NCBI GenBank assembly: GCA_004431415.1
Contig: QPMI01000457.1
Location: 248,001-312,000 of the forward strand
Direction: 5' to 3'
DNA: 64,000 nt
Source: Cyanophora paradoxa CCMP329
Taxonomy: Eukaryota > Plantae > Glaucophyta
A program made the position numbers and the translations under genes. Positions 1 through 46,700 of the stretch are shown in pieces. The notes under the pieces are model-generated. The model did not search any database and had not been told where the DNA came from. It was given only the letters and a program-made list of their open reading frames with translations. Within the stretch, counting starts at the first letter, position 1; each line of letters opens with the position of its first letter.

Positions 1-2
1 AG

Positions 3-770
3 GAATTCAATGCTGGTGAAATGATAGAACCCCCTTTTCGACTACTCATACTCGGAAAAAGTGGATGCGGAAAAACAGAAGCTGTAAAATATTATTTGAA
101 ACAGCTGCATGATGCCAAAAAGATTGATACAACACTTATTATATCCGCTACCTCATTTTCACATTTTTGGGACAAAGCTGCTACTGTTCAACTGGGTGCA
201 TGGGATCCCCAATACATGTCGAAAATTATAAAAGAAAGAGAGGCAAAAAGGGAGAAAGGAGAAGAACTTAACCATATGCTGGTGATTTTAGAGGATATGA
301 TAGAAAATGACCAGCTGGATCTCAGTCGAGATAAAACAGTGGGAATGCTTTATGTTCGTGGCAGACATGTCAATATATCAATTATAACTATTTCCCAAAA
401 ATTAAGAAAGGTCGCAAGTGTTATTCGCTGCAATAGTGATATAGTAATTATGGTTTGTGCAAGCAATCAAAAAGAGCTGGAAGCATTTGCAGAGGAGTTT
501 TCGACTTTTCCTCGCAAAGAAGATTTCTATCAACTGTTTGAAGAGTATGTCCACTCATATCAATTCCTTGTTTATACATCTTTCAAGTATAATGTGGGCT
601 ACTATGTTGATAAAGCCGATTTAGTTGGAGATTTCGATTTTCCTCGCTTCCACAGGAAGCCCAAGAAGAAAGAAGATGAACTGAAACCACCAGAGAAAGA
701 GGAAGCCCCTAAAGAAGTGAAAAGCCAAGTCCATAGCAATAAATTGATGCGATATAAACGCGGTTTATAA
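3..770 (+). CDS. A32/FtsK-like DNA packaging ATPase (element A); 5' end probably upstream of window
   Basis: Walker A GKSGCGKT, Walker B LVILED, RGRHVNISIITISQ and IRCNSD motifs. The frame is open from base 3 (EFNAGEM), matching the N-termini of the B and C ATPases. Confidence 0.9.
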   Translation, partial: EFNAGEMIEPPFRLLILGKSGCGKTEAVKYYLKQLHDAKKIDTTLIISATSFSHFWDKAATVQLGAWDPQYMSKIIKEREAKREKGEELNHMLVILEDMIENDQLDLSRDKTVGMLYVRGRHVNISIITISQKLRKVASVIRCNSDIVIMVCASNQKELEAFAEEFSTFPRKEDFYQLFEEYVHSYQFLVYTSFKYNVGYYVDKADLVGDFDFPRFHRKPKKKEDELKPPEKEEAPKEVKSQVHSNKLMRYKRGL

Positions 771-798
771 AATTATCTCTCATTCTAATAAAGATACA

Positions 799-1533
799 AT
801 GCCTCCCAAACGAAAGATAGGGATTCCAGCTGGGGCTGTTGGCTATTCAGGTGGTGGAAACAATGGATCCATTAATACTGAACCAATGAAATTCAATGGT
901 ATGAATGAGGTGAAGCCCTCACAGCAAGAAGAAGACCCCCTCAATGCTGCCTATGAGGAATCAGTTGATGACAAAGCCCCACAGGCTTCAACCAGTGACC
1001 AACTCAACATCTCACCAGAAGCCTCAAAAATGAAAGCTGTTGCTGAGGGTGCCAGGCGAATTATTGGGGCTGCTGATGACAAAGGTTTAGGCTTGCAAGA
1101 TCTTTCACTGGCTCGCAAAGGTGAGGGTCTTAGTAAGGAATCAGACAAGGTAATTCAGTCTATGGCTGGTGAAGTCACATACAAGACTGCTCCCACTCAA
1201 AATATTCATCGAATTCCCAAGGCTCAATGGGATGAGATGACTGCTAAACTCAAAGATCTGGAAGCCAAATCCAGTGCCTTGGAGCAGTATGTGACTGAGA
1301 AGAAAGAGAGAGCCAAGCTAAAGGAGATGCTTCGAAAGGAAGTCTATAAAATGGGTATTACTGGTGTCCCAGATAAACAGTTTATTGCTAAGAAAGAGAA
1401 CCAAATCGATGAACAGGCAGTAGATGAAATGAAAACAAAGACCCAGAAGGGAACCATTGAACCTGGTGCTACCAAAGCTGAAGTAGAAAAGGGAGTAGCC
1501 CCAACAGTATATAAAAGACGAGTTTGGCTTTAA
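799..1533 (+). CDS. Conserved hypothetical protein following the ATPase (coiled coil)
   Basis: KLKDLEAKSS...ERAKLKEMLRKE...VPD is shared with 14284..14955 and 38493..39125 at the same position. Confidence 0.8.
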   Translation: MPPKRKIGIPAGAVGYSGGGNNGSINTEPMKFNGMNEVKPSQQEEDPLNAAYEESVDDKAPQASTSDQLNISPEASKMKAVAEGARRIIGAADDKGLGLQDLSLARKGEGLSKESDKVIQSMAGEVTYKTAPTQNIHRIPKAQWDEMTAKLKDLEAKSSALEQYVTEKKERAKLKEMLRKEVYKMGITGVPDKQFIAKKENQIDEQAVDEMKTKTQKGTIEPGATKAEVEKGVAPTVYKRRVWL

Positions 1534-1555
1534 TTATCTCTGTTTTATTAGAGAC

Positions 1556-1828
1556 ATGGATATAATACGAAAGTTTTTCGAGATGTTCAGTCTGCATGTG
1601 GTGAGCAATTGCCACAGTGGATGCTGTGAGACAAGAGTGGAGTTTGAGATGTCAGATAATGAGGATAATGCTTCTGAAGCAAGAGAGAGAAGGAGATCAA
1701 CAGTTTCTGTGGAGTCAATGCCAGCAGACCCCACAGAGTATACATATGAGCAACAGGAGTATCCAAGGAGAAGTTCTCTGCCAGCAGAAAACGTTTTCTC
1801 TGGGAATATAAATGGAGGACACTATTAG
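1556..1828 (+). CDS. Small Cys-motif protein (CxSGCC)
   Basis: N-terminus EMFSLHVVSNCHSGCCETRVE is homologous to 15156..15503. Confidence 0.75.
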   Translation: MDIIRKFFEMFSLHVVSNCHSGCCETRVEFEMSDNEDNASEARERRRSTVSVESMPADPTEYTYEQQEYPRRSSLPAENVFSGNINGGHY

Positions 1829-2057
1829 TTTAATCGAGTTTACCAGTGATGAACCTGTTACTGAGGGTTCTATTAGACACATTCTAGCAATGCAGAAACG
1901 ATATAGAGAGGACCCAGCATATAGAGAGTATAAAAAGCAGCAAGCCCTGGCATCCTATTATCGCAGAAAAGCCCAAAAAGAGGAGCAGAGACCAAGAGGG
2001 AGACCGATTAAATATTATTTGCCTACTGAAAGTAGCAATGGACCCCCAGGTCTATAA
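1812..2057 (+). CDS. Small basic AT-hook-like protein
   Basis: RYREDPAYREYKKQQALASYYRRK...RPRGRP; paralogues at 2822, 15722 and 40007. Confidence 0.75.
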   Translation: MEDTISLIEFTSDEPVTEGSIRHILAMQKRYREDPAYREYKKQQALASYYRRKAQKEEQRPRGRPIKYYLPTESSNGPPGL

Positions 2058-2148
2058 GATAATTGAGAAAAAGCGGTCTCAGTATGCTACTGAGGCAGCT
2101 ATAAAAATATATACAAAGGAATTGGCTTTATTGTTTAAGATGAAGTAG
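2038..2148 (+). CDS. Conserved 36-aa microprotein (not in ORF track)
   Basis: Manual translation MDPQVYKIIEKKRSQYATEAAIKIYTKELALLFKMK is homologous to 15531..15671. Confidence 0.65.
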   Translation: MDPQVYKIIEKKRSQYATEAAIKIYTKELALLFKMK

Positions 2149-2434
2149 AACGACTCATTAATTTGTTAAAGAGTCGTTTTCTTGTGGCAGTGTTTGAATG
2201 ATTTTTTTTGTTAATTGAAGAGAGGTAGTTTGGGTCTATTATCATGCCCAATACATCTCTCTCTACTTTCTGTCGAAATTCCTTGTTTCGCTTATTATCA
2301 GCCTGACCAATATTTATTCCTGTTGAGTGGAGACTACTCTCTACAATAGCATCAACTAATCCTTTATGATCTTTCCAGAGGGTATCTTTTTCAATCTTTT
2401 CGGCAAGAATTCCTTTGGCAATTTGAGCAGCCAT
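2135..2434 (-). CDS. Hypothetical protein
   Basis: 99-aa ATG-initiated ORF filling the gap; no recognised motif. Confidence 0.5.
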   Translation of the reverse strand: MAAQIAKGILAEKIEKDTLWKDHKGLVDAIVESSLHSTGINIGQADNKRNKEFRQKVERDVLGMIIDPNYLSSINKKNHSNTATRKRLFNKLMSRSTSS

Positions 2435-2506
2435 TGTTGTTTTCTTATTAATATATCTGATAAATCTTTAAGTCAGTTTACACAATCATTTTTTGTTGAT
2501 GAAAGG

Positions 2507-2705
2507 TTGTCAGGCAGCAAGAAGTTTGTCAGGCAGGAAACACATTGATTTTCACAAACGTTTCCAATTCTCAATGTCATTGTTTGAATCAACAATGAAA
2601 TTTTCATTATAGAAAAGTTTTCTAAAAAGGTGCCTGACAATGCCTGACATACTATATTAGTGCCTGACAACTATTTGAAAGTGCCTGACAAACCATTTAT
2701 GGTAA
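2507..2705 (-). repeat. Iteron-like TGTCAGGCA module, copy 1 (inverted relative to copies 2 and 3)
   Basis: Two TGTCAGGCA, an AT-rich spacer, then four TGCCTGACA. 2576..2705 is a near-exact reverse complement of 11056..11185. Confidence 0.85.
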
Positions 2706-2821
2706 CAGTATAGGAATTATCTCTGTTACCAAAAAATGACGAATCATAAACTACTTAAGGAAATCAAGCATATTGCAAAATGACAAAACATTTTTCTCGG
2801 TTATAGTTAAGAGACACCCAA

Positions 2822-3052
2822 ATGGATACTGATCAAACTGTAACTGAGAGCAAAAGTTTTGAGAAGATCTCTTCTGCAATGAAGAAAAAGATCTCAAACC
2901 AAATTTATTATAATAAAAGATATGAAGAGGATGAGGAATATCGTGAAATTCGCCGCAAAAGGGCATTAGCCTATTACTACTATAAAAAGCAACTCACAAT
3001 TGACCCAAATTTCCCAGAAGGTCGACCTGTAGGTCGTCCTCGGAAATACTGA
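2822..3052 (+). CDS. Small basic AT-hook-like protein
   Basis: KRYEEDEEYREIRRKRALAYYY...GRPVGRPRKY. Confidence 0.75.
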   Translation: MDTDQTVTESKSFEKISSAMKKKISNQIYYNKRYEEDEEYREIRRKRALAYYYYKKQLTIDPNFPEGRPVGRPRKY

Positions 3053-3226
3053 AATGCCGGTTCATTATTTTTGTATGGGGAATTCATAAAAAAACTGATA
3101 CACTACTACCAATAATCGATATAATTCGAAGCCAACCCAAAAGGACTTAAAGGTTTGGCAACAAAAAATGACAAGGATTTTCAGATAAAATATTTTATCT
3201 GCTTAATATAGAAACGTTCAAGAAAG

Positions 3227-5618
3227 ATGTTTAGCTCAAAGAAACCCAACAATCTCGATATCACTCTTATTGAAAAAGTATCTCGCCCTACTCTTAAGTA
3301 TTTAATCGATAATTTCGAGGGTTTGAGTTATAGACCAGATGTGGATTCTACTGCTACTTTGACTCTCCTGAAGAAATACATGAAAGACTTGCATTCAAAT
3401 GGAACCATTCAAGTTAAATACTATCAATGCAAACACCATACTGGGAGATATTTCACTACTCTCTCACACATCAAAAACAAAAAAGCAAGCATGCAGAGTA
3501 TGCCTCGGGAATTTAGACACACCTTAGCAAGGGATTTGTATTATGATATTGATATGAAAAATGCTCATCCATCGATACTCGTCCAGTATTGCCAAAAAAT
3601 GACATAAACTGTGATTTCCTTGCTGAGTTTGTTGCCAATCGAGATAAAATCGTTAGTGATTTAAGCAAAAAGTGTGATCTTACTCGTGAAGAAATTAAGT
3701 GCGCCTTCTTATCTGTGATTAACGGAGGAGGAGGCATTGAGTGTCCCGATTTACACAAAGAAATGGCTTTTAAAAAGGTTAAACAAGAAATTGGTGGTAT
3801 TCATGCTTCTATTGCTGAATTAAAAGAAAATACCAACTTCCTTGCTATTTGCAAGCGAAAGAAGGGCTACAATGTGTTAGGTTCCACTGTTAACATGGTT
3901 CTTTGTCAGATCGAGAATATTGCTCTTATGGCTCTGTGTGAGTATCTAACCTCCATCAAACTCACTGTTGGTGTTCTTGTATTTGATGGCTGCATGATTG
4001 AAAAGTCACCTAATCTATCACTGGAAAAACTTACTGATATTCTCAAAGATGCAGAGAACTATATCCAGCAGTCCACAGGATACAAATTAGGCTTAGTTGT
4101 TAAGCCTATGGATCAGGGTTTCGAGCTTCCAGATGAAGCTTCTCTGAAAGCAAACGATTTTCGAATTTGCTCTACAGACTATGAGGCTGCTACTCTGTTT
4201 GCTGAAGATATCAAAAATGATGTCAAGCAATCCAATGGTCGTATATTTGTCAAAACAGATGAGAACCTTTGGACTGAGGAAACCAATCAAGTGGAAAATA
4301 TGCTTTTAAAGAAGTGCCTTCAAGCAAAGATCTATCATGAGGGTCTGACAGGTCTAACAGAGTATACCGCAAATATAACAGGCGCTCAAAAAGTAATCAA
4401 AGCTACAAAAGCTCTTCTGCCAAATGATAGTGAGTTTGTGAATAATGTCCTTTGGTCTTCATCTCTTGGAAAATTGTGTTATAAAAATGGTGTGTATGAT
4501 TTCGAAACCAAAAAGCTTACTCCTTGGGCAGAGTGTCAAAACGTCTATTCCACTACTAGAATTGAAAGAGATTTACTTGTAGATGATCGAGGATATGTAG
4601 TCAAGCCGTCAGAAGAGCATATAAAAATCCTCTACGAAAACATACTTGAACCTGTGTTTGGAGCAGATGCAATTAATACTGCTCTCGAATTTACAGCAAG
4701 AGCAATGGCAGGCAAAGTAGAGGATAAACAATGGGGACTATCATCAGGTGAGCGCAATTGTGGAAAAGGAGTTTATGTCAATCTTAATGAGAACACTTGG
4801 GGGAGTGGTTATGTAAACACTATTGGAGGAGAATCTTTCCTGATGGACAAACATTCAGATTCTGATGAGGCTAAAAAGCTAAAATGGATGAAACCATGTG
4901 AATTTCGCCGTTTAACATTTACCCAAGAGATGAAGTTTGATGTTTCGAATCCAAGTATCAAGATAAATGGCAATATGATTAAAAAGAAAGAATCTGGTGG
5001 TGATATTCAATGCATTCGAATCCTATATGGAAATGAGCAAAATATAAGACTCCAAAGTAGGCTCTGGATGATCATGAATGATATGCCCCTGTTTCTCCAT
5101 CTGATACACTTGAGACTCTTGTTTTCTTTCAGCATCCCCACAAGTTTGTGGATCAGAAAACAATGGATGAAATGAAGCTCCCATGCTATAGATTGGCTTC
5201 TGAAGATATTAAAAGTGATCTGCTTAAACGCCCTGAAATCATTCATGCTTTCCAATGGTCAGTATTCCAAGCATACAAATCCCACAAAGTCCAGATATGT
5301 GGCAAGGTGGCAAATGATACTGCTGCTTTCAGAGAGGATGCAGGTGATGAAATTCAAATACTAAAAAGCAGATTTGAATTTACAGGAAATCCTTCTGATT
5401 CTCTGTCAAGCAAAACTGTAGATGAGGAGTTAAAAGCTTTGAAACTCAATATGTCTGCAAGCAGGGTTAAGAGAGTAATGGAGATGTTGGGAGCCAAATA
5501 TGACAAATATGCAGTGAGAAAGGCAACTTCAAAAGTATATGATAGAGGTTACAAGTGTGTAAAACTGATTTCGGAAAATACAACAGAGTTTATTGATGAG
5601 GATGATGATGATTGTTAA
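3227..5618 (+). pseudogene. TVpol (family-A polymerase-like primase) fused to SF3/D5 helicase; two apparent -1 frameshifts
   Basis: PolA-like motifs DIDMKNAHPSIL, INGG, QIEN and LVFDG; helicase Walker A GERNCGKG. Three ORFs join if one base is added to the A6 run (3594-3599) and one to the C4 run near 5087, so this may be a sequencing error rather than decay. Confidence 0.8.
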
Positions 5619-5622
5619 AAAG

Positions 5623-5768
5623 CTGTCAGGCACTGTCAGGCACCTTTCTATTTAACTTTTATAAGTTTATGGTTTCATTAGTTTTCTCAAACACTGACTT
5701 GAAAAAGTGACAGAGTTTCTTAATGTTGGCTGAATCAGCTGCCTGACAATCGAAGTCTGCCTGACGAT
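5623..5768 (+). repeat. Iteron-like TGTCAGGCA module, copy 2, immediately after the primase-helicase stop
   Basis: Two TGTCAGGCAC, about 100 bp of AT-rich spacer, then two TGCCTGAC. Confidence 0.8.
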
Positions 5769-5820
5769 TTAAAACAAATACATTATAATATTCTTATAAT
5801 AAAAAGTAGTAGTACCAACA

Positions 5821-6138
5821 ATGACAAGCTGGACTACCAGAATGAGTTCAATGATTGAGAACAAACATTTCGATAAAGATGATTTGAAGGATATACCAGC
5901 TCTTATAGACAAAATCATCAAATGCCAAAGCAAATGTGATGGGTATCAAATGTCACAACTTTCCTCCAAAGATATTGATTGTTTGCGATTACAAACAGAG
6001 AAAAACTTAATTAACGCCCTTAAACAGTATCACAAAAACCCAAATGTATGGACAAAAAATGGATCACATAATCCAATGCATTACAAAGCCAAATTGCGAA
6101 AGAAACTAGAAAATCGCGTTCAGAACATCTCAGAATAA
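5821..6138 (+). CDS. Hypothetical protein
   Basis: 105-aa ORF between helicase and PolB; no recognised motif. Confidence 0.5.
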   Translation: MTSWTTRMSSMIENKHFDKDDLKDIPALIDKIIKCQSKCDGYQMSQLSSKDIDCLRLQTEKNLINALKQYHKNPNVWTKNGSHNPMHYKAKLRKKLENRVQNISE

Positions 6139-6172
6139 AATATTTGTTGAGAGTAGGAACAAGTTAGGAACT

Positions 6173-9100
6173 ATGCCCCGAATCAGCAACAGACTCATAA
6201 GAGAGAAGAAATGGGAACTCATGGGATTACTGGGAACACTGTATGCAGCCCATGAAATCACAGAGGCTGAATATGACCGGGAAATCGGATTTATTTCAAG
6301 GGGCAGACCCACTTTAGCAAAATTAACCAGAAAAGCCAATAACCTCTATGACAAAGTTGAGACTCTTGATGAACTCGATCGCCTGAGGCAAATAGAACCA
6401 GAGGCAGAAGATGGCACAGCCATGAATGAATTATATCGCTGGCTCACATACAGAGCCAGAAGGGAAGTTGTTGTAGATGTGATTGAATATTTAGATAGAA
6501 TTGCAACCTCTCTTCCAAAACGTTTAAGAGACAGTCTAGATCAATTCAGGGCAATCAAAGTTCGCTTATCTTTTATCTGCAAGTTCGTTAAAGTCAGCAA
6601 TCCACAGGTTTGGATATCGAAATACATTTACAGTGATTATTTTGTATTAACCAAATCGAGAAATATTCGAACTGAGCTGAATAAAGCAGCCCAAATGTGT
6701 CAGGAACAGATGAATGTTGTTGATAGCTATCGACTTGAGAGAATCAAAATGCTAAGAGTTGCTATTATGAGTTATGCTCCAACTGGTGGCTGCTATGTTA
6801 AAACACCAGAATCAATTGCAGCCAAGAGAGCCACAGTGAATATTCGAAATATTGATGATTCTTGCTTTGAAAATGCCATTTTGGCATGGATCCATAGGAA
6901 AGATGTAAATTCCCACAAGAGAAGTGAGCTTACACAATATCGCAAATGGAAATACTCACCAACCACATACAATCCTTTGGCTCTCAATTTCGACAATATC
7001 CCATTCCCTGTTGCCTGTGATGCTGAAATAATTGATAAATTCGAGGCTCAAAATGCAGGCATTAGCATTAATATATTTGGAATCGATGGAGAGGTTATTT
7101 ATCCCCTGCATCAATCCAGCAACCCAGGCAGAAAGCAAAAGATTAATCTCATGCTCATTCATGATGATGAAGGGAATGGTCACTATATTACTATTATGTC
7201 ACTCTCAAGACTTCTCAGAGTTGCCCTTGATAAAACCAAGGATCAAAAGTTACACTACTGTGACACATGCTTATCTCGATTCAGGTCTGAGGCTAAACTC
7301 ACTGCTCATGTGGACTCAAATAGATGCATTGATTGGAGACTCTCAAAGGGAATCACACCAAAACCTGAGACCACCATAGAGTTTGGACTGAAAAACCTCA
7401 GGAAAACTGTTTGGCTTCCTGTTGTGGTTTACTGCAAGATTGAACATAGAAGCATCCCCATTGATGCATCAAAATCTAAGAGGGAAGTCTCAGCAGTCAA
7501 CCTGAGAGTAGTCACTGGGGCAGATGTTCAGGAGTTTCGATTTGAGGGTCAGGATCCAATGGGAGGTCTGTTTGAATGCTTGGAGTCCAAAGCAAGAGAG
7601 CTAATCGATTTCCTGTTCACCAATATTCCCATGAATGAACTCACAGATGAGCAAAAGGCTATTTACAGAGCTACCAAACACTGTTACCTTTGCAGTGAGA
7701 GGTTCACCAAGGAAAACTTCAAATGCAGGGATCATGATCACCACACAGGTAATTACATTGCACCTGCATGCAGAAACTGCAATCTCCATAGGAGAATCTC
7801 AAAGCAAACAAAAGTAGCAGTGGTTGTTGACCAAATGGATGACTGTGGGACATTCATTTTCAGAAAAATAGCAGGCATGGGTGATAAAAAGCGAATCGAA
7901 ATCCTTTCGAAAAACTTTGATCAATACCTTTCATTGCAATGGGGTCTTTACAAGTTCATTGATGCAAGTAATTTTATGGACTTTGGGGCTGCTGATGTAG
8001 ATGAGTTAATGAGCAAATTCCAGGCTTTCAGAAGGCTTTCACACTCAGTATATGGATTGGACCCAGTTCATTATGTATCTGCACCTGGGTTATCTTGGGA
8101 TGCTATGCTTAGGACCACCAAGGCAAAAATAGAGCTTATAAGTGATGTAGAGCAATACGAATTTGTTGAGAGGGGAATCAGGGGTGGCTTTGCAACAATG
8201 CCTTGTAGGTATGCTGAGGCTGATGGTGAAAACTCCCATATAATGCTGTTTGATGCTAACAACTTGTATGGCTACTGTTTGAGTCAGCCAATCCCAGTTG
8301 GTGATTTTAGATGGGAGACCGAATTCAACCCACAAGATAACAGATCCAGTTTCCTAGAAGTTGATCTGGATTACCCAATTAGGCTGTTTCTAGATCACAG
8401 TGATTTTCCCCTAATTATTAACAAGAAAATAGTAGAATATGCAGAATTATCACAATATCAAAAGAGCCTATTAGATCTCTCAGGAGAAGAGCTTGATAAG
8501 ACCCCTAAGCTAACTGCAACCTTTGGTTCTGTGACCAACTATGTGATTTCTGAGCCTCTTCTACAGTATCTGTTGGACAAAGGGGTGAAACTAAAGAAGG
8601 TTCACAGGGTCCTATCATTTACTGTGGCTCCTGTAATGAAACCCTACATTGAGCTGAATACTGAGATGAGAAGGAAAGCAGTGAATAAATTCGAGGCTGA
8701 TTTCTATAAACTCATGAATAACTCAATCTATGGGAAATGCATTGAATCTTGCAGAGGTAGATCTGTGGTTAAGATTGCAAACAGTGAGAAACTGTTTATG
8801 AAATATGCAGCTTCCCCATTGGTGAAATCAACAAGTCCCATAAACGAAAAAGCAGTTGCCTTTGAGTTTTACACAAAGCATGTGAAGCTAGATAAGCCAG
8901 TTGCTATTGGGGCTTATGTTCTGGATGCAGCCAAACTGCATAACTACAAGTTCTTCTATGATACTGTAAGGTCCCAATGGACAAAAGCAAAGTTACTATT
9001 CCATGATACTGACTCCTTTTGTCTATATATCGAATCTAAGACCCTCCAAGAGGACCTGGGGAATATCTCTTATGCATTGGACCTAGGGGGGTCTAACAGA

Positions 9101-9418
9101 ATGACCCCAGGTAAATACAAAAATGAAATGCCTGGCTCTGCTATATTGGAGTATGTGGGTCTGAGAGCAAAAGTTTACAGTTTCAGAACTGCTGAGATTG
9201 AGAGGAGTAAGCTCTCTGGGACTTCCACTGAGGAACTCCAATTTAATGATTTTAAGCAGTGTTTATTTGCAGGTATCAGCAAGACTGTGACTGCAAAGCA
9301 GAAAAGAAGGGCAGATCACACAATAATAGACACTGTGAGTAGAAGGGTTGCCCTAAACTGCTTTGATGCAAAGAGATACATCTTACCAGATGGTATTAAT
9401 TCTGTTCCTTTTAATTAA
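6173..9418 (+). CDS. polB: Protein-primed family B DNA polymerase (Polinton type) with degenerate 3'-5' exonuclease
   Basis: DANNLYG, YKLMNNSIYGK, FHDTDS and GLRAKVY motifs; EndoVII-like Zn insert CRDHDHHTG...CRNCN; N-terminal NIDDSCF...GHY region. Confidence 0.93.
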   Translation: MPRISNRLIREKKWELMGLLGTLYAAHEITEAEYDREIGFISRGRPTLAKLTRKANNLYDKVETLDELDRLRQIEPEAEDGTAMNELYRWLTYRARREVVVDVIEYLDRIATSLPKRLRDSLDQFRAIKVRLSFICKFVKVSNPQVWISKYIYSDYFVLTKSRNIRTELNKAAQMCQEQMNVVDSYRLERIKMLRVAIMSYAPTGGCYVKTPESIAAKRATVNIRNIDDSCFENAILAWIHRKDVNSHKRSELTQYRKWKYSPTTYNPLALNFDNIPFPVACDAEIIDKFEAQNAGISINIFGIDGEVIYPLHQSSNPGRKQKINLMLIHDDEGNGHYITIMSLSRLLRVALDKTKDQKLHYCDTCLSRFRSEAKLTAHVDSNRCIDWRLSKGITPKPETTIEFGLKNLRKTVWLPVVVYCKIEHRSIPIDASKSKREVSAVNLRVVTGADVQEFRFEGQDPMGGLFECLESKARELIDFLFTNIPMNELTDEQKAIYRATKHCYLCSERFTKENFKCRDHDHHTGNYIAPACRNCNLHRRISKQTKVAVVVDQMDDCGTFIFRKIAGMGDKKRIEILSKNFDQYLSLQWGLYKFIDASNFMDFGAADVDELMSKFQAFRRLSHSVYGLDPVHYVSAPGLSWDAMLRTTKAKIELISDVEQYEFVERGIRGGFATMPCRYAEADGENSHIMLFDANNLYGYCLSQPIPVGDFRWETEFNPQDNRSSFLEVDLDYPIRLFLDHSDFPLIINKKIVEYAELSQYQKSLLDLSGEELDKTPKLTATFGSVTNYVISEPLLQYLLDKGVKLKKVHRVLSFTVAPVMKPYIELNTEMRRKAVNKFEADFYKLMNNSIYGKCIESCRGRSVVKIANSEKLFMKYAASPLVKSTSPINEKAVAFEFYTKHVKLDKPVAIGAYVLDAAKLHNYKFFYDTVRSQWTKAKLLFHDTDSFCLYIESKTLQEDLGNISYALDLGGSNRMTPGKYKNEMPGSAILEYVGLRAKVYSFRTAEIERSKLSGTSTEELQFNDFKQCLFAGISKTVTAKQKRRADHTIIDTVSRRVALNCFDAKRYILPDGINSVPFN

Positions 9419-9421
9419 GAG

Positions 9422-11252: not shown

Positions 11253-11316
11253 AGATTTAACACCAACTAACACTGAGATTTTCACAATATATGAGGTCCT
11301 TACTGAATATGGTTTG

Positions 11317-32892: not shown

Positions 32893-32916
32893 TTTTATAT
32901 AAGCCCCCTTTTAAAA

Positions 32917-35283: not shown

Positions 35284-35311
35284 TTTTATTCTCTAACTGA
35301 TATTAAAAAAG

Positions 35312-36268: not shown

Positions 36269-36318
36269 GCTGACGCATTGATGCAAATTATTTTCTTTCA
36301 TAGCAGTTATACAAATCC

Positions 36319-37707: not shown

Positions 37708-37724
37708 TTTCACGGACTATCTTT

Positions 37725-38480
37725 TTGATGGATGGGCCAGACGAGCTCGCACAGTTCCAGCCTAGCGATATGAGGGTCCCATTTAAGGCCCTGTTTATAT
37801 CGAAATCTAATAGTGGCAAGTCATTTTACTGCACCAAGCATCTGCTGCGGCTGCTGTATCCAAAGATTAATCGAGTCGTCGTGTTTACCGCCACAAAATT
37901 CAATGGCGAATATTCGGCAATAACTAAAGAGCTTTACGACGATTTTCAGCCCTCTATCGTTGCAGAGATAATTGACTCACAGCGCAAGCTGATCGAAAAC
38001 AAAAAGAAAGCGCCACAGATATTGCTCGTCTTGGATGATCTCGTTGCCGCCTCTGAAACCGTGGACCTGCGAAACAGCAAGGCTGTAAATCGACTTTTTA
38101 CTCAGGGTCGTCATTTTAATATCAGTACGATTCTTATGACCCAAAAGCTAACAGCTCTTAGTCAATCTATAAGATCGAACTCCGACTATTGTTTTTTCTT
38201 CAGTTACTCTAATCACACGGAGCTGGAGGCCATCTACAGAGAGTTTAGCCATCTTCCAAAAGACGAATTTATAACCTTGTTTGAAACCTGGGCGCACGAT
38301 TATCAGTGCCTAGTCTTAGATGGAACTAAGTACGATACGGCCTGGTACGTTGACAAGGCTGCTGAAGATAAGAGCTTTCGTTTCTCTAAATGGCTAAGAC
38401 AAAAAGAAGAAGAAGGCCCTAAGACGGAAGAGTCTCTTGTGAGCTCTAAGAAGAAACGCCGATTTAAAATATCAGTATAA
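37725..38480 (+). CDS. A32-like packaging ATPase (element C)
   Basis: SKSNSGKS, LVLDD, QGRHFNISTILMTQ and IRSNSD. Confidence 0.9.
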   Translation: MMDGPDELAQFQPSDMRVPFKALFISKSNSGKSFYCTKHLLRLLYPKINRVVVFTATKFNGEYSAITKELYDDFQPSIVAEIIDSQRKLIENKKKAPQILLVLDDLVAASETVDLRNSKAVNRLFTQGRHFNISTILMTQKLTALSQSIRSNSDYCFFFSYSNHTELEAIYREFSHLPKDEFITLFETWAHDYQCLVLDGTKYDTAWYVDKAAEDKSFRFSKWLRQKEEEGPKTEESLVSSKKKRRFKISV

Positions 38481-38492
38481 GAACATTAAGAG

Positions 38493-39125
38493 ATGCCACG
38501 CGGAAAACCTATAAAGGGCTATCGGGAACGCAGGGTGCTCGCTGAGCCGAATGCTCCACTAATTGAGAGTGGTGCCACAGAGGGCGCAGCTGTCGCTGAT
38601 CCCAGCGGGGAGCTCGCAAGTGACCCCCAATTAAATGCCCCTGTAGCGAAAACAATTGCGTCCGCAGCTGCTGGTGCCAGTGCAACCGACGATCGTCACG
38701 CCCAGGCTAAAACTGTAAATGAAATGCAGTCTGATATCGATGATGATGCTGCTAGAATTATCCAAGCCATGGCCTCTGAACCACGCTATTCAGGGCCGAA
38801 AATAAGAACACCAGCTATAAGCAAAAGCCAGTTTGACGAGTTAGCTGCTAAATTACGCGATCTAGAAGCGAGGTCATCGAATATCGAATCGTATGTAAAA
38901 GAGAAGCAAGAGAGAGCAAAGATCCGCGATATGTTGCGAAGCGAGATGTTTAAGCACAGACCTATGGATGTACCAGATTTACGCTATTTGAAAAATGAAA
39001 AAATAAAGGCAGAGCAATCGCTTGATTCTGCCGAAGTAAAGCCAGCAACTCCAAATGTTTTTGAACCCAATTCTACGAGCTTGCAGATGAAGAATGCGAT
39101 AGGTGGGAGAAGGATTAGGTTGTAA
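38493..39125 (+). CDS. Conserved hypothetical protein following the ATPase
   Basis: KLRDLEARSS...ERAKIRDMLRSE...VPD...GGRRIRL. Confidence 0.78.
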   Translation: MPRGKPIKGYRERRVLAEPNAPLIESGATEGAAVADPSGELASDPQLNAPVAKTIASAAAGASATDDRHAQAKTVNEMQSDIDDDAARIIQAMASEPRYSGPKIRTPAISKSQFDELAAKLRDLEARSSNIESYVKEKQERAKIRDMLRSEMFKHRPMDVPDLRYLKNEKIKAEQSLDSAEVKPATPNVFEPNSTSLQMKNAIGGRRIRL

Positions 39126-39645
39126 AATTCAACTGCAAGAATGAACGGTCCTCAGCTGAAGAATGCTGAAGGGCATAGGTGTCTCTGGCTTTAGCAGCGG
39201 CTTCAGCAGTAGTATAGTAGCCGATGTGCTTATTGCGGCCATTTATCTTATAGTATGCTTTCCATTTACAATATCTCTGATCGAATGAAACACCAATAAA
39301 TCCTGATGTGTTATTTCGCTGTTGGCCACGATTCAAACTCTGCTGACGCTTTGTTGCCAGTCGAAGATTTTCGCGGCTGTTATCAAGCTTGTTCAGATTT
39401 ATATGATCGACAGTTAAACCATTCTCCAAGTCGCCGCTGATGAAGTTATGCAACAACACGGGCTTCCCATTGATCTTGGTTTGAGCATATCCAGAATTAT
39501 GTAAACACCAACGAAATTCGAGCACACGTTGCGCATCATCCTGACTAACAAGTGCATAGGCGACAATGACTTTACGTCGATTGCGGATACCACCAAGCGG
39601 AATCAAAGCAACACCTTCAGGAACATTTGGAATTGTGACCTCCAT
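39115..39645 (-). CDS. HNH-AP2 endonuclease
   Basis: VDHINLNKLDNSRENLR, NTSGFIGV and IGYY..AEAAAKARD. Confidence 0.88.
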   Translation of the reverse strand: MEVTIPNVPEGVALIPLGGIRNRRKVIVAYALVSQDDAQRVLEFRWCLHNSGYAQTKINGKPVLLHNFISGDLENGLTVDHINLNKLDNSRENLRLATKRQQSLNRGQQRNNTSGFIGVSFDQRYCKWKAYYKINGRNKHIGYYTTAEAAAKARDTYALQHSSAEDRSFLQLNFTT

Positions 39646-39675
39646 CTTCTTTTACAATCTGAGATTGCGATCTCT

Positions 39676-39903
39676 TTAAGGTAAATCAAAATCGGGCAGA
39701 TCCTCTCCTTCTACAGTTGGTCTCCTTTGCTGTTTTGCCAGATCATTCGATTGACAAATTTCAAAGGCCCGCTGCAATTCCCTTTTATCGTATTCACGGA
39801 GATGTTCCCAAGACATTAACCATTCAGCATATTTCGGATCGGTTAAAACTACCTTAAGGTGAGTCTCTCCTTGGTACTTTCCAAATCGAATTGTTCCTGG
39901 CAT
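39676..39903 (-). CDS. Small FGKY-motif protein
   Basis: IRFGKYQG...DPKYAEWL (DUF3820/ExoX C-terminal-like pattern). Confidence 0.6.
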   Translation of the reverse strand: MPGTIRFGKYQGETHLKVVLTDPKYAEWLMSWEHLREYDKRELQRAFEICQSNDLAKQQRRPTVEGEDLPDFDLP

Positions 39904-40006
39904 TTTGCTTTATATAAACCGCTGCGATTTAATTTTTCGATTTGAACGCGCCATAAACGTTTCTCGAATTTCTTTCCTATATAACAATCACAGCACCACT
40001 CATCAA

Positions 40007-40324
40007 ATGGACAGTGCTGAATTCACGACTGCTTCCCGTCCACGAGGCAGGCCTCGCAAGAATATTGAGAAGCCCGTGCACATACGTACTGAGGTTACGC
40101 CAGAGATACTTGCAGAGAGACGCAAAAGACGTGCAGAGCTGCAGCGAAAGCGATACCATGAAAATCCAGAATACCGGCAGCGCCAGATTGCTGTCTCCCG
40201 TCAATATAACCTTGCACACCCTGAACGAAAACTGGACAACGACCGAAAATACCGAGAGCGAAGGCGCACTGAAATTAGGTCGCTAATTGCGGCGGGCATA
40301 GTTTCCAGCGACCTTACTGCCTAA
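40007..40324 (+). CDS. Small basic AT-hook protein
   Basis: RPRGRPRK and RYHENPEYRQRQ; likely start MDSAE at 40007. Confidence 0.7.
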   Translation: MDSAEFTTASRPRGRPRKNIEKPVHIRTEVTPEILAERRKRRAELQRKRYHENPEYRQRQIAVSRQYNLAHPERKLDNDRKYRERRRTEIRSLIAAGIVSSDLTA

Positions 40325-41212
40325 TCGCAGTGAAGGCTCCCCTGCAACCTCTAGTTTCTTGAGCTCACGAGCTTGCCGACTCTGTCCGCTATACTTTTTC
40401 GTTTCAATGAGACCCTCGCGCCGTAGCTGTTGCTCTTGCTTTGCTTTGGCCGCAGCTCGTTCTATTTTTGACTGATTCGGAAGCTGTCTCGGGGCTCGAA
40501 TTTCTGAAGGCTTGATTCTACGGCTTAATATCTGTCCCTCTTTGGTTGCGACCCTTATTCGGTTCCTGTCCTGCCCCACGACTGTGTACGTCTCCTTGCT
40601 CGGTTTCGTAGCTCCCTTTGCAAAGATGCTGCTCTTAGGCTCCAGTATCTGCACCTCAGTCCCTGGCTTTGGTAGATTCAACGCGTCTCTCTCAATGTCG
40701 TTCTGTCGTTGACGCACCTGGTGCAGCTGGGCAGCGATCTGCGGGTGATCTCGCATCCAGGCTGGTGAATACTCTCTGCCAAAAGAGCTGTGTTTTGTTT
40801 GATTGTATGCCTTGATCAAAGCAGGCAGCCGGGAGAGAAAATTCGGCGACCCTCGTTCCTCTGTGTCTGCCTGAATCAGGGCTCGCAATGTCCGTGCGAA
40901 TCGATCGATGATTGCTAGCTTGTCGCCTTTCGATATGTGATCATCCTTAGCGACGTCAGTGTGCATCGAAAATGAATTCTCTTCGGCCATTGCCCGCACA
41001 GCAGCCGTATTAAAGCCATTGTCGCCCGAAAAACCCCAGATCCCCGGCAGCTGAGCGATGAATTTCGGAATCTGTTTAGCATCTTCAAGCTTTCTGACAA
41101 CGGCGAATCGAGTTGCAATCTCAATCGCTGCAAATAGTCGAAAACGTCCTATGAAAAGTATATCAACCTGCCAAGCGCCTGGCGGTGCAGTGATTTTGAA
41201 TGAGGGTGCCAT
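40283..41212 (-). CDS. rve-type integrase (element C); Asp at the third catalytic position
   Basis: WQVDILF, SGDNGF, IIDRFARTLR and YNQTKHSS; C-terminal LRREG...RELKKL is shared with the A and B integrases. Confidence 0.85.
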   Translation of the reverse strand: MAPSFKITAPPGAWQVDILFIGRFRLFAAIEIATRFAVVRKLEDAKQIPKFIAQLPGIWGFSGDNGFNTAAVRAMAEENSFSMHTDVAKDDHISKGDKLAIIDRFARTLRALIQADTEERGSPNFLSRLPALIKAYNQTKHSSFGREYSPAWMRDHPQIAAQLHQVRQRQNDIERDALNLPKPGTEVQILEPKSSIFAKGATKPSKETYTVVGQDRNRIRVATKEGQILSRRIKPSEIRAPRQLPNQSKIERAAAKAKQEQQLRREGLIETKKYSGQSRQARELKKLEVAGEPSLRLGSKVAGNYARRN

Positions 41213-44200
41213 TAGTTATTCGAAAGATTTTTATAGTGACCTATCGCCCTGGTGTTCACACCATCCTCGCACAGGAATCGCTTGGTATCAAGCGGGTGTA
41301 GGGCTTGCTTTGATGTCCGCTGTAGCCAGATCCGGTGCTGTTTCGATCTGAAGCCGAGAATTCCATCTACGTTGCATGATATGCCCCCAAAGATGCAGTC
41401 GTAGTATCGCTCTCGTGTCAGCGAGCTGCTGAACGTCTTGTTAACGCCCTTGCACTTGTGCACTTCTGATTCCTCTGTGCTCATGAAGTAAGATTTAGGC
41501 CGGTTCGCGATCCACTCAAGCATTTGTCTGCCGCCACACTCATCCTTGAACAGCCCGGGAACCTTGCCCATCGATCGTAGTCGCTGCACTTCGTCTTCTG
41601 ACATCCCTTCAAAGAACGGGTGACTCATAGGGTATTCACTAACATCTAGCTCGTTTTTGATTTTGCGAAGGTCTTCGTATAAATTTTCGGTCTCAATCTG
41701 AATGATAAGACTGTCTGTATCTGTACCAAGTAGCTTGAGTCGATCACCCCAAAGCGCTTTCAGCACCTTGTAGTAAAACCGATACATATGTAGCTTTGAT
41801 AGATCAAGGATTGCGAACCCACAGTAGATCGGTTTGTTGAGTTTGTATTCGCTCTTTCGCTTATTTACATACACCAAGTTTTCGTCATAGATAGCGACCT
41901 GTCTCAAGCGGTTCGGCTCTGTGTTGATTTTCGCTAGTCGTTCTCCTGTTGTCACAAGCTCTGAATTGCAGTGATTGCGTACGTTTTCCATCGTTTTCCC
42001 AAACACCGCATTATTTAGCAGCTTATAAAGATCTTTTTCATACGGGAATTCTGCCTGTTTTCGCTTCAGAGTGTTCAAATCGATATAGCTCTCTAGCCAT
42101 GCACTTTGCGCGAACGAAAGCACTCTGTGTATTTTAGAAACAACCATCCCCATCGACACATAAAACTGCAGCACTCGTGCATCTACTACGTAATTCTTCT
42201 TCGGCAGCAAGTTTGGGACTAGCTTTGGCGTTCTCTCGATCCCGCTTAGTTTTTCACGCTCAATAGTTTCTCGCTGCGCCTCTGATAGGTGCTCTTTTGA
42301 TACGCACATACGCTCAGGAGCTAGTGGATAATCGCTAAAATAATCATGCAGCTCTTCTGGACAATACATGTCAACCTCCAGAGAAAAACCCCTTGAACCA
42401 TTAACATCTAGGTCTGTGATATACAGTTTAGGATTAGTAATACCACTGACGTTCTCCCATTTGAAGTCCCCTGTCGGTAATTTTTGTTTCATAGAAAGTC
42501 CATAAAGATTGTTCGCATCCAGATACAGTAGCCAGCCCTGCTTTTTCCTGTGACCCACGATGTACTTATCAATCCAGGCATTATTGGCTCTAGCATAGCG
42601 TGTTGATATCATAGAGATTCCTCCCCGAATCCCTTTCTCAATAAAGCGGTGCATATCCTCTTGTCCTTCGTAAAATAGCTCCAGTTGCTGACCAGTGTGC
42701 TTCAAAGCCGCCTGCCACGAGAAACCTGGAATGCTCATAAAATAGCTTGGGTCCAGCTTATACGTCTCCATACACGTGTCACGGTAGTTTTCAAATATGT
42801 CTCCTAGTAAAGCTATGTCTGTCTTCATATACTCCATTGTATAATCAGCCATTGTCCTGCAACCAAGCTCACGCCAGACCGACTGAGCGTGGGCATAATC
42901 ATCCCGAGAGCACTTCGACTGTTTTAGCTCATTGTAAAATTGGCGGCGTCCTGGTAGTGATGTCTCTGCAAGACGATCCCAGCCCGTAATGTACTTGTAT
43001 GGATAGACACCCTTGCGCGTCATTAGTTTGAACCGTGTCTCGCTCTCATGTAATGCACGCGTGATATTCTTTTTCTCATCAGGTACTGCAGCCGCAAGGC
43101 TATCGAGAGTGCCCTGTAGGTGCTGAGCAGAATCACGGAAAACGTAAATGCCGTACGTGAACTGTGACATGCGCTCGCTGTTCTGAAACACCTGGTCAAA
43201 CTTCGTTGACAATAACTCACGAGGACGTAGTTCACGCTCAAGCCGCTTCTTTGCATTTATTGCATGATCTGTACTCAGCTCACGCCCTGCGTATTTTGCT
43301 TGAAACTTGCGCTCGACCTCGGCTCGGAATGCATTTTCTGCGACTTTCCGCCGGTTATAGCCTGCAGCCAAAGCCCTAACTAATAGGTGAAAGTCAAATC
43401 CTCGTCCATTGTGAAAGAATATTGGCACGGCGGCAGCTTTTGCTCGTCGCCTGTTGCAGGCATTGCAGGCCGCTCCAAGATACTGCCCGGAGTCGTGGCA
43501 GTGATCTCGATTTTTATCTTTGACTTCTTTGAACTCGCTTCCACACATATAGCACGTTTCTGCTGCTTGAAAGGAGCGCTCTTGTTCCTGTGTAATCTGC
43601 ATCGTCGCTTTCTCCTCCAAGATTCCCTTAAACTGCGGCTCTTTTTCATCTAGCCAAGTAACAAATGCCTCTGCAGACTCCTCAGTTTGCGAGCCCATAT
43701 GCGAGAACCAAAACTGCTCCTGTTGCCTCGTCTCTGAATTTTCAACGCTTTCTACAGTTTCATTCGTTCCTTGATTTTGTCCCTTGTTTAGGATAACTAA
43801 GCACCCGATCGAAGATATCGCGTGAACACCTAGCTGCTTCGTCTTTGATACACTCTCGGTCTGCAAAACAGGTACAGTCATAGTTTCCGAGTCAGCATAT
43901 CCAACGAGTCTTTGCCGAATCGTCTTTTCGAAACTGTTGAATTTTATAATGTGCTCGCCCTTTTTTGGAAGCACATCCCTTGCGTGCTCATCTCGATCAA
44001 GACACCGGTCGTATTTAAGATGATTCTTAAAAGCCTCGTCTGAGCTAAAGCCACACTGGCAGGCCAAGCAATAATGCTTCGCATTCGACCCATGCTTTCC
44101 AAACAGGCGCGATATGTTCTTTATCCACAAATAATGCCCCACATCATTCCCGTCACCTGCCGGCACGTACAGTATGGGTATAGCATCCGTTGCTGCGCTT

Positions 44201-45258
44201 ATGTGGATTGGAATGATGTCTTGTTTGTCTAGCGCAGTCGTGTAGACGCAGAGCTTAACATTATTCGCACACTCAAATTTGCTGAACATTTTCGAATCGA
44301 GTGGTGTCGGATACGTAAGCATTGTACAATCTAGCGATGCCTCGTGCTGCCTATAGCTTCCTGCATGCCTCGAATCCACCCCTGGCGCCAGCGGATTGCG
44401 CGCTGCGAGGACAGCATATTTAAAGCACTCGTTGTTTGGTGCATTGATATTGATCAAGGCCTGCTTGAGTGCAAGCCAGCTCGGAAGTACAAACCCACGT
44501 CCACGGCCGCCCATACGTCTGAAATATCTAATCACTGTAAAGCGTAGCTTAATCCATGTCTCGAAAGCGGAAGAATCACGGCTCTTTTCCTGCGCAATAG
44601 TATCTAGCTCCTCCAGCTGTGAGCGGATCGCCTCAACAACGTCTGACCCTGGGAGTATGCGGTAAAATTTCCTGTGCTCAATCACTACTGCAAGCGCTGA
44701 GTCCTCGTTAGGCTTGCGAAAGAGTCCGACTCCTGAGACCTGCAAAGCTATGCCCATTCGATCCTGACTGGCTAATTCTTGCTGCACGCTCGCAAATGCC
44801 ACTGCGCCTGCTCTGAACCTCGCATTATTTTCTAACTGCGCCTGCATCGATGTGACTCGGCCTGTTCCACGTGAGGGCCGGTACTCCCAGTCAGCGTATG
44901 TCCCGTTCAGCGCTGTCGTCACTGTGCCATCCTCCTCTGCAATTTGAGTTTCGCTGAATTCGTTTGCGCTCGGATCCGGCAGCTCTGAGAACCCGGCCAC
45001 GATTTCAGCCTGACCCTCGGCAATAGCAAGCTCTAGCCGGGCAGCTGCCACTGGTCTCGACGGCCTCGGTACCGCTGATAGCTCATTCAAAAGTGATGCG
45101 TATTTTTGTAGTGTCGGCAGTCGCGTGCGTGAGCCACTCGCACTGATGCGCTGCAGTTTGTTTCTAAATTGCCCATGAATAAACCTGCGATTGTACAAAA
45201 CCTCGGCCTGGCCTGCTATCTGCTCTTTGAGCCGCGCGATCTCAAACCGGCGCTCCAT
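41212..45258 (-). CDS. polB: Protein-primed family B DNA polymerase with intact exonuclease motifs
   Basis: ExoI YADSE, ExoII HNGRGFD, ExoIII YMKTD; polymerase DANNLYG, KLLNNAVFGK and TDTDS. Confidence 0.94.
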   Translation of the reverse strand: MERRFEIARLKEQIAGQAEVLYNRRFIHGQFRNKLQRISASGSRTRLPTLQKYASLLNELSAVPRPSRPVAAARLELAIAEGQAEIVAGFSELPDPSANEFSETQIAEEDGTVTTALNGTYADWEYRPSRGTGRVTSMQAQLENNARFRAGAVAFASVQQELASQDRMGIALQVSGVGLFRKPNEDSALAVVIEHRKFYRILPGSDVVEAIRSQLEELDTIAQEKSRDSSAFETWIKLRFTVIRYFRRMGGRGRGFVLPSWLALKQALININAPNNECFKYAVLAARNPLAPGVDSRHAGSYRQHEASLDCTMLTYPTPLDSKMFSKFECANNVKLCVYTTALDKQDIIPIHISAATDAIPILYVPAGDGNDVGHYLWIKNISRLFGKHGSNAKHYCLACQCGFSSDEAFKNHLKYDRCLDRDEHARDVLPKKGEHIIKFNSFEKTIRQRLVGYADSETMTVPVLQTESVSKTKQLGVHAISSIGCLVILNKGQNQGTNETVESVENSETRQQEQFWFSHMGSQTEESAEAFVTWLDEKEPQFKGILEEKATMQITQEQERSFQAAETCYMCGSEFKEVKDKNRDHCHDSGQYLGAACNACNRRRAKAAAVPIFFHNGRGFDFHLLVRALAAGYNRRKVAENAFRAEVERKFQAKYAGRELSTDHAINAKKRLERELRPRELLSTKFDQVFQNSERMSQFTYGIYVFRDSAQHLQGTLDSLAAAVPDEKKNITRALHESETRFKLMTRKGVYPYKYITGWDRLAETSLPGRRQFYNELKQSKCSRDDYAHAQSVWRELGCRTMADYTMEYMKTDIALLGDIFENYRDTCMETYKLDPSYFMSIPGFSWQAALKHTGQQLELFYEGQEDMHRFIEKGIRGGISMISTRYARANNAWIDKYIVGHRKKQGWLLYLDANNLYGLSMKQKLPTGDFKWENVSGITNPKLYITDLDVNGSRGFSLEVDMYCPEELHDYFSDYPLAPERMCVSKEHLSEAQRETIEREKLSGIERTPKLVPNLLPKKNYVVDARVLQFYVSMGMVVSKIHRVLSFAQSAWLESYIDLNTLKRKQAEFPYEKDLYKLLNNAVFGKTMENVRNHCNSELVTTGERLAKINTEPNRLRQVAIYDENLVYVNKRKSEYKLNKPIYCGFAILDLSKLHMYRFYYKVLKALWGDRLKLLGTDTDSLIIQIETENLYEDLRKIKNELDVSEYPMSHPFFEGMSEDEVQRLRSMGKVPGLFKDECGGRQMLEWIANRPKSYFMSTEESEVHKCKGVNKTFSSSLTRERYYDCIFGGISCNVDGILGFRSKQHRIWLQRTSKQALHPLDTKRFLCEDGVNTRAIGHYKNLSNN

Positions 45259-45516
45259 TTAACAATAGCGCTCCAAAAGATTTTCAGAGAAAGCGCGCAA
45301 CCAACCGCTCGTCCCTATAGGGCGGTGCGATTCCTTTATAACATGTCACTGAGGCACATTGTGTGGTAGATCGCGATCGCAGCTGGTGCTGCTTGGAAAA
45401 CTGATAGCTGAGTTGGCGCTCTTGCGGCGGCGATGTAAAAGCATACGCAAATGCATTTAAATTCGAATTCTAGTAGCGCTTATAACACTACAGTAAGCAG
45501 TCTTAGAAGGCATGAC

Positions 45517-45925
45517 GTTCGTGACTTTGGACAAAAGTTCACGTCCAAAATCCTCAAGCATGCAGGCGCACCACCACGCATGTCTCGCTCAATCTAGCCG
45601 CTAATATAGCCTCAATTACACTATAAGAGACGACTAGGCTAGTTGCTAGCCAATTCGGGCGGCGTTCTGAAGTTCGTGACTTTGGACAAAAGTTCACGTC
45701 CAAAATCCCCAAGCATGCAGGCGCATCCCCACGCATGCGTGTCATGATCAAAGCGCTAGTATAGCCTCAATTACACCACAGGAGACTACTAGACTACTTG
45801 CTAGCCGATTCGGGCGCCGTTCTGAAGTTCGTGACTTTGGACAAAAGTTCATGTCCAAGGTCGCCTAGTGACTTTGGACACAAATTCACGTCCAAGTTCG
45901 CATAGTGACTTTGGACAAAAGTTCA
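45517..45925 (+). repeat. Subterminal repeats of C: 155-bp period then 37-bp period, core GTGACTTTGGACAAAAGTTCA(CGTCCAA)
   Basis: Core at 45521, 45676, 45831, 45868 and 45905; contains the TTGGAC-N10-GTCCAA dyad. Confidence 0.85.
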
Positions 45926-46076
45926 AGAGCAATCTCTAGGCCTTATTGATCTGGCTATCCTTATCACTGTCAGGCACGTCATCATTAGTAATCAATTGAG
46001 AAATCTTTAAGTGCTTTTAAATGCTGAGCCATTTTCGGAACCAGCCATGTCCAGAAGTATCAATATATATTAATTA

Positions 46077-46223
46077 ACTTCTAGGCAATGCCCAAAGGTA
46101 ATATCTATTCTTTTAATACTTCTAGGCAATGCCCATAGGTAATATCTATTCTTTTAATACTTCTAGGCAATGCCCAAAGGTAATATCTATTCTTTTAATA
46201 CTTCTAGGCAATGCTCATAGGTA
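46077..46223 (+). repeat. 41-bp tandem repeat, about 3.5 copies
   Basis: ACTTCTAGGCAATGCCCA(A/T)AGGTAATATCTATTCTTTTAAT at 46077, 46118, 46159 and 46200 (partial). Confidence 0.9.
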
Positions 46224-46700
46224 TCTTTATCTTTACAGCACCCAATTCAGTCCAGCAAGCTAGGGATTACAGTGAAGGTAAAAAGAATGAAGTTATTCTC
46301 TCCTGAGGCCGCAGCAGACCGCGCGCAAGGGGGGGCCGCGCTCCTCTACGTCTCTTCTAGTTGTCAGCTCTGTCTTGAATAGTCGCAAGCTATTGCTAGG
46401 CTTTGACCTAGGGAAAAGGCCGGCAGACGTAGCTGGATCGGCGGGGTAGACGTAACGACAGAGCGTGGTCGGAGGGAGAATGGGGTGGACGCTAGGGCTG
46501 GTGCAGCGAGGGAGGTGGTGAGGAGATGGGGTGGCGGAGAGGGGTGGGCCATCTGGGTGGGCTCTCTCTCATTTTTTTTATAAAGCTGCGCGGGGGTCGA
46601 TTCGGCCTCGAACAGCTCGGGGCTGATGGTAACGGAAAACGCATTATTTCGGGACCGCATTATTTCGGGACCGCATTACTTAAGTGTCTTTAGGCCCCCT

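Follow-up and report, generated by a model that had tools for sequence, protein, structure and literature searches.

Halocafeteria seosinensis is already known to harbour nested Polinton-like viruses (PLVs) and virophages, including one triple nest, and viral DNA has been read there as a tolerated site of integration. According to the passages of the preprint on these elements (10.64898/2026.07.28.741278), those of the 77 elements that are located inside other viral elements comprise 5 PLVs and 9 virophages, one PLV holds a virophage that holds another virophage, and viral DNA is regarded as a tolerated hotspot. Retrotransposons nested in such viruses are also described (passages of PMC8547959, PMC12220804 and PMC12747079). 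Here, we analysed a 64,000-nucleotide stretch of the glaucophyte Cyanophora paradoxa CCMP329 (contig QPMI01000457.1, positions 248,001 to 312,000; hereafter the window), in which the right-hand ends of three different PLVs, designated A, B and C, abut. The end of A interrupts the capsid gene of B, and the end of B appears to interrupt a gene of C.

For C. paradoxa, the supplement of PMC10120064 gives 366 capsid hits (3.7 per Mb, an estimated 7.3% of the genome), in two clusters marked as new. A set of 156 glaucophyte elements (passages of PMC12220804; columns as interpreted by us) includes rve in 85, HNH in 40, S74 in 37, lipase in 89 and protease in none. The passages of these two papers report no nesting among C. 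paradoxa PLVs, and those of four further texts (10.64898/2026.10.13.758929, PMC12721341, 10.64898/2026.06.19.733378 and 10.1101/2025.10.09.676808) add nothing further. A literature search covering open papers and the main texts of bioRxiv preprints retrieved no description of nesting among PLVs of glaucophytes.

Element ends and the genes they interrupt

The first 46.3 kb of the window have a G+C content of 38-45%, compared with 70% in the remainder, and contain three parallel gene sets, one per element. Only right-hand element ends fall inside the window. The elements, their ends and the genes lying at the junctions are as follows.

1-11953 (+): element A, right part of a PLV; 38% GC; ends in TATGTGT
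11670-11697 and 11926-11953: terminal inverted arms of A; 28 bp, perfect, 228-bp spacer
11954-26976 (+): element B, right part of a PLV; 45% GC; ends in TATGTGT
11954-12493 (+): 3' remnant of the major capsid gene of B, 179 codons; cut at the end of A
26906-26976: terminal hairpin of B; 28-bp perfect arms, 15-nt loop; ends in TATGTGT
26977-46301: element C, nearly whole PLV minus its left end; 45% GC; ends in TCTCT
26977-27244 (-): 5' part of a cut gene of C, 89 codons; cut at the end of B
36319-37707 (+): major capsid gene of C, 462 aa
to 46301: repeat-rich end of C, closing in TCTCT
46302-64000: host DNA; 70% GC
62440-63966 (-): part of a dynein heavy chain gene, within the host DNA

The sequence TATGTGT occurs on the + strand of positions 1-46301 only twice, ending at 11953 and at 26976, precisely at the two junctions that an earlier note on this DNA had described as sharing this ending. 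C is closed by TCTCT at 46301, where the G+C content jumps from 0.38 to 0.61. The dynein heavy chain gene on the far side of this boundary identifies the host as a eukaryote. The ATPases of A, B and C share 33-34% identity in all three pairs. The pPolB proteins of A and B are 58-66% identical, those of A and C 24-31%, and those of A and B taken against C 24-37%; the integrases of A and B share 65% identity and those of A and C 26%. Judged by these comparisons, A, B and C are distinct viruses, as the note had proposed.

From its first codon, the open frame of 179 codons starting at 11954 aligns with residues 282-460 of the 462-aa capsid protein of C (36% identity, E 2e-31), in agreement with the note's claim that the capsid frame of B resumes here in register with that of C. 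The 30 codons preceding 11954 are unrelated to the capsid and contain stops, and the 5' part of the B capsid gene is absent from the window. We compared the junction region (11910-12000) with contigs of two of the 24 listed public sequencing runs, the matches listed comprising 16 of the 116 pieces and all but two of the 14 loose ends. In both runs, one contig (depth 881 and 2314) matches the window from 11954 onwards and differs to the left of it. Its leftward extension comprises 10 open in-frame codons, six of which, translated by hand, are identical to residues 272-281 of the C capsid. By rough depth ratios, such uninterrupted B-type capsid genes are present at about 15-22 times the single-copy level. 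The B family thus has whole capsid genes, and the copy in the window is broken exactly at the terminus of A.

Summed depth drops across 11953/11954 from about 23,300 to 3,800 in run X8 and from 55,500 to 9,200 in run X2, the contig carrying the end of A reaches roughly 55-110 times the single-copy depth (again by rough ratios), and other A ends continue into GC-rich contigs at about single-copy depth. The drop in depth and the many flanks demonstrate that the end of A is a true multi-copy terminus with many different neighbours. An end that includes G11954 was ruled out, as G follows only 30% of A ends. We also rejected the idea that the short units bounded by these arms are miniature transposons in their own right: the depth at the end of A corresponds, roughly, to two ends per copy of the A family.

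At the B/C junction, a minus-strand gene of C, starting at 27244, has no stop in the 89 codons that reach 26977; from base composition, such a frame would be expected with P about 0.003. A full HMMER search retrieved seven relatives of this gene. Four of them (136-301 aa) match from the N-terminus, and the other three, left out of the alignment, are repeat proteins in which only short internal stretches match. All four close homologues share a conserved block extending to about residue 115-125, which includes a glycine-rich motif; the C gene ceases to match them near residue 89, and reading through the junction does not yield the motif. The best tblastn match extends a few codons beyond the junction, at low similarity. 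This comparison, made with homologues rather than with an uninterrupted C-family copy, supports the view that the end of B breaks a conserved C gene inside a domain, and it agrees with the note's placing of 26976 in the middle of a C frame. Since two of the four close homologues end in a C1q domain, the cut gene probably encodes a fibre or spike-type protein. The window contains neither the remainder of this gene nor the left end of C.

Neither the B capsid remnant nor the cut C gene yielded a longer form in word-index searches, and the latter also had no usable match in the protein atlas. The terminal 24-mer of A had no exact match in viral contigs, nor had the 24-mer of the C side of the junction in metagenomes. 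A contig comparison over 20 kb listed 24 of its 437 loose ends and 32 of some 9,700 pieces, and none of those listed lay at either junction. There was no RNA run among the listed runs matching the window.

Gene content and classification

The remaining predicted genes of the three elements are listed below.

21-770 (+): A, A32 ATPase; PF04665
3227-5618 (+): A, primase-helicase, in three pieces; weak D5_N
6173-9418 (+): A, pPolB; PF03175 above cutoff
9422-10807 (+): A, rve integrase; rve E 1e-4 or 1e-5, D-D-E motif
12568-13302 (+): B, HNH-AP2; about single-copy depth
13292-14260 (+): B, ATPase; PF04665
16161-18782 (+): B, PriCT-2/DUF5906 primase-helicase; PF08707 and PF19263
20025-23288 (+): B, pPolB with an in-frame stop at 22458; two pieces, compared above with the pPolB of A
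24355-25797 (+): B, rve integrase; rve E 1e-4 or 1e-5, D-D-E motif
27655-32892 (-): C, S74-chaperone fibre, 1745 aa; internal 36-bp and 57-bp repeats, C-terminal S74 chaperone
32827-34401 (+): C, patatin
34393-36268 (+): C, two unassigned genes beside the capsid gene, possible minor capsids
37728-38480 (+): C, ATPase; PF04665
39115-39645 (-): C, HNH-AP2
40283-41212 (-): C, short integrase-like gene, 309 aa; weak rve, E 0.07
41212-45258 (-): C, pPolB; PF03175 above cutoff

An A32-type ATPase (PF04665) above the cutoff was found in all three elements. PF03175 exceeds the cutoff in A and C, and the pPolB of B was recognised by its identity to that of A. The rve matches of A and B (E 1e-4 and 1e-5) lie below the curated cutoff and are accompanied by D-D-E motifs. 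The integrase-like protein of C is homologous to the integrases of A and B and has D where the third catalytic E is usual. A double jelly-roll capsid is indicated for C by its identity to protein P0001 of C. paradoxa, an HHpred-supported capsid, and by a cluster score; the remnant in B is homologous to it. P0001 shares 65% identity with the C capsid and is its only relative found by the word-index search; a search of viral contigs returned none. The capsid gene in Table S2 of PMC10120064 matches P0001 over the sequence shown there (HHpred, 98.5% to an iridovirus capsid). In the protein atlas, the C capsid scored 0.98 to Capsid_N/Capsid_NCLDV clusters, a score of low recognition value that is weak when taken alone. 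Its resemblance is thus to these clusters instead of virophage-type capsids. Pfam revealed no maturation protease among the 31 proteins scanned, parts of A and B lying outside the window. Taken together, the predicted genes fit PLVs (Polisuviricotina) and not virophages (Virophaviricetes).

Neither of the two candidate minor capsid genes of C had a Pfam match; the one at 35312-36268 also had no PDB match, and its single-sequence structure model (pLDDT 34) was unusable. The capsid gene of A falls outside the window.

Pieces of the B family are present in many copies, which differ by up to about 4% from the window. The B-type capsid genes, at 15-22-fold depth, contrast with the HNH-AP2 gene of B, 295 nt of which were matched without differences at about single-copy depth. 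This gene is likely to be a mobile endonuclease that only a few members of the B family carry.

The inverted arms at the tips of A and B are both perfect and both exactly 28 bp long, but the spacers between them differ greatly in length (228 and 15 nt). The hairpin of B folds with a z-score of -12.6, and none of 200 shuffled sequences folded equally well. Its stem can be extended by 6 bp (chance about 0.007), which would place the end 7 bp further to the right; we rejected this placement, since the codons there match a homologue of the cut C gene (P0002) and so are likely to belong to C. Loose ends of runs X2 and X7 at position 11916 show that other elements share the sub-terminal sequence of A and then diverge into a tip ending in TCTCT, like that of C. 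These TCTCT-tipped relatives suggest an exchange of termini among families.

Both A and B contain a non-coding block of about 200 bp in three copies, each element having its own: 2510-2712 (-), 5624-5778 and 11049-11251 in A, and 18782-19000, 25968-26186 and 26430-26650 in B. The blocks are composed of short direct and inverted repeats, and one copy follows directly after the helicase gene, with one or two near the element end. The helicases of A and B are of different types and show no similarity by BLAST. As each type is accompanied by its own block, we would guess that the blocks are helicase-matched origins.

To the right of C, a small repeat-like host region (46699-47886) includes, at 46795-47561, one direct repeat of 58 bp and one inverted repeat of 40 bp; C itself may have landed beside another mobile element.

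Successive insertion and its alternatives

At both junctions, a resident gene is interrupted exactly at the terminus of the inner element, as judged by contigs for A in B and by homologues for B in C. The simplest reading of these two breaks is sequential nested insertion, and we consider it fairly probable that three PLVs with rve integrases inserted successively, and largely without targeting, into a genome very heavily loaded with viruses. C would have integrated first, into host DNA, followed by B into the fibre-type gene of C and finally by A into the capsid gene of B, each insertion being driven by the element's own rve integrase. A would then be the youngest element. B, with its capsid gene lost and a stop in pPolB, would likely be dead as a virus, and C is likely trapped by its cargo, the two together probably exceeding a packageable length. 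An insertion that lands in a resident provirus may be cheap for the host, and insertions into gene-dense host DNA may be purged more often, which would allow such nests to persist. The left halves of the elements and target duplications of 5-6 bp would be expected upstream. As these would fall outside the window, it is from the right-hand junctions that we infer nesting; thus, of the note's proposal that A integrated into the capsid gene of B, and B into C, both gene breaks are supported and the nesting itself is deduced. Its further statement that each insertion disables the resident holds for the capsid gene of B, but the core genes of C are intact frames.

Frame breaks are found in the two inner elements. 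The primase-helicase of A has two (3600-3610 and about 5080-5175), and B has the in-frame stop in pPolB; each of these may reflect decay or an assembly error. Together with the intact frames of C, they suggest either a young nest or consensus errors, the latter being a known problem for such elements (passages of PMC10120064).

Whether chance could produce such a locus was examined by simulating uniform sequential insertion of 20-kb elements into a 100-Mb genome (600 repeats). With no selection, the probability of at least one triple nest for 366, 250 and 150 elements was 0.29, 0.10 and 0.02. It rose to 0.72, 0.30 and 0.07, respectively, when half of the host insertions were purged, and to 0.98, 0.73 and 0.25 when three quarters were purged. 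At the reported load, a triple nest therefore needs no targeting; a very high virus load is the likely cause of this one, and not a tendency of the viruses to seek one another out.

It is nevertheless conceivable, although unlikely, that integrases of the A/B type prefer proviral DNA, recognised by its AT-rich sequence, by its chromatin state or as a co-replicating virus genome, and that nests are built by such targeting. The two successive insertions both hit PLV genes, and A and B have integrases of 65% identity and a common terminal 7-mer. Of the 77 elements in Halocafeteria, 14 are nested, compared with a 6.2% share of the genome (passages of the preprint; P 3e-4 in our binomial test), an enrichment that selection would also produce, and Ngaro retrotransposons show that a preference for virophage DNA can evolve (passages of PMC8547959). 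Against this, the other flanks of A that can be read are host-like: four of them, readable from single contigs, have a G+C content of 57-80% by hand count, contig building favouring unique flanks. Depths of 31-mers following A ends gave G in 30% (run X8), GC in 11.5% and GCC in 5.2% (run X2), where 35, 13 and 4.1% are expected in host DNA and 22, 5.6 and 1.1% in PLV DNA. These values are nearer to host composition (best-fit PLV share about 0.2-0.25), and, with 75 ends assumed, the proposition that all A ends lie in PLVs has P values of 0.04 (G), 0.02 (GC) and 0.01 (GCC); the test is weak in that it mixes two runs and ignores any base preference of the integrase. Moreover, the Mavirus-like elements of Cafeteria burkhardae (EMALEs) show no sequence-specific integration (passages of PMC8547959), and chance suffices at the reported load.

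The note had proposed that these viruses either target related proviruses or survive best in them. Survival is plausible, and is the reading published for Halocafeteria, whereas the GC-rich flanks and the simulation lean against targeting. Its stronger suggestion of virus-on-virus parasitism finds no support, random insertion at the reported load being sufficient. We regard it as improbable that integrases of elements with ACACATA...TATGTGT hairpin ends are biased towards the DNA of other PLVs, so that islands grow by themselves and newcomers knock out the virion genes of residents, a PLV-on-PLV parasitism in a glaucophyte. Should such targeting be real, parasitism among PLVs would gain a further layer, one that the present evidence does not require. 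In a genome with hundreds of insertions, a simple tally could separate targeting from tolerance.

Several observations weigh against successive untargeted insertion. The flank-base test is compatible with PLV shares of up to about 0.8, and the lowest simulated probability, 0.02 (150 elements, no selection), would make a triple nest rare. C, presumed to be the oldest element, has the fewest broken genes, where a simple order of decay predicts otherwise; the breaks in A and B may, in turn, be assembly errors. Finally, no contig bridging the A/B junction was found in either of the two runs (residual depth 0). When a short link of single-copy depth joins two high-depth paths, assembly graphs can be expected to remove it. 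Because there is no bridging contig and assemblies drop such rare links, the A/B join is unconfirmed by reads, and the missing contig neither confirms nor refutes it.

This missing contig, the many B-family copies (diverging from the window by up to about 4%) and the false consensus known for such elements (passages of PMC10120064) could also point to an assembly mosaic, in which one or both junctions were joined from other loci through multi-copy B sequence, or are chimeric. We consider this doubtful: the junctions lie exactly at element termini and offer no shared sequence to drive a misjoin, the B copy in the window has its private, nearly single-copy HNH gene, matched over 295 nt without differences, and the loss of a short single-copy link is what assembly graphs would lead one to expect. 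One-sided rearrangements, by which an integrase-driven adjacent deletion or inversion joined an element end into its neighbour and left no intact nest upstream, would accord with the visibility of right-hand junctions only, with the location of the capsid/ATPase genes of A, B and C all on one strand, and with the partial elements described in Halocafeteria clusters (passages of 10.64898/2026.07.28.741278), but are likewise improbable, as two independent clean terminus-to-gene joins without visible filler are the ordinary outcome of insertion, three elements would share an orientation by chance in 1 of 4 cases, and no feature of the window requires a deletion.

Comparison with known systems

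If successive insertion is correct, the window presents a clean, base-exact locus of PLV-in-PLV-in-PLV nesting and places in order the insertions of three virus families, whose capsid lineage has been poorly described. It also shows why automated counts of "complete" elements overlook or merge such loci.

In the presence of pPolB, an rve integrase, an A32 ATPase, a double jelly-roll capsid and, probably, inverted ends, the three elements resemble Polintons/Mavericks, from which they differ in that Pfam detected no maturation protease in the 31 window proteins scanned. Polintons end in CT, as does C, whereas A and B end in GT. The gene content of the window fits the 156 endogenous glaucophyte elements (passages of PMC12220804).

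The EMALEs of C. burkhardae (passages of PMC8547959) are similar in being AT-rich viruses of a GC-rich host, with rve integrase, pPolB and nested mobile elements. They are, however, virophages, and their passengers are Ngaro retrotransposons, which do prefer particular sites (91% of type 1).

The closest parallel is provided by the passages on Halocafeteria, which share with this locus elements inserted in viral elements, one triple nest, terminal palindromes and the tolerated-site reading. The nest described there is a virophage in a virophage in a PLV, whereas all three elements here are of the PLV type and reside in a glaucophyte host; the palindromes there accompany mainly elements without pPolB, whereas A and B carry this gene. 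What the present locus adds are the uninterrupted B-type capsid contigs across 11953/11954 and the end of A joined to many other flanks.

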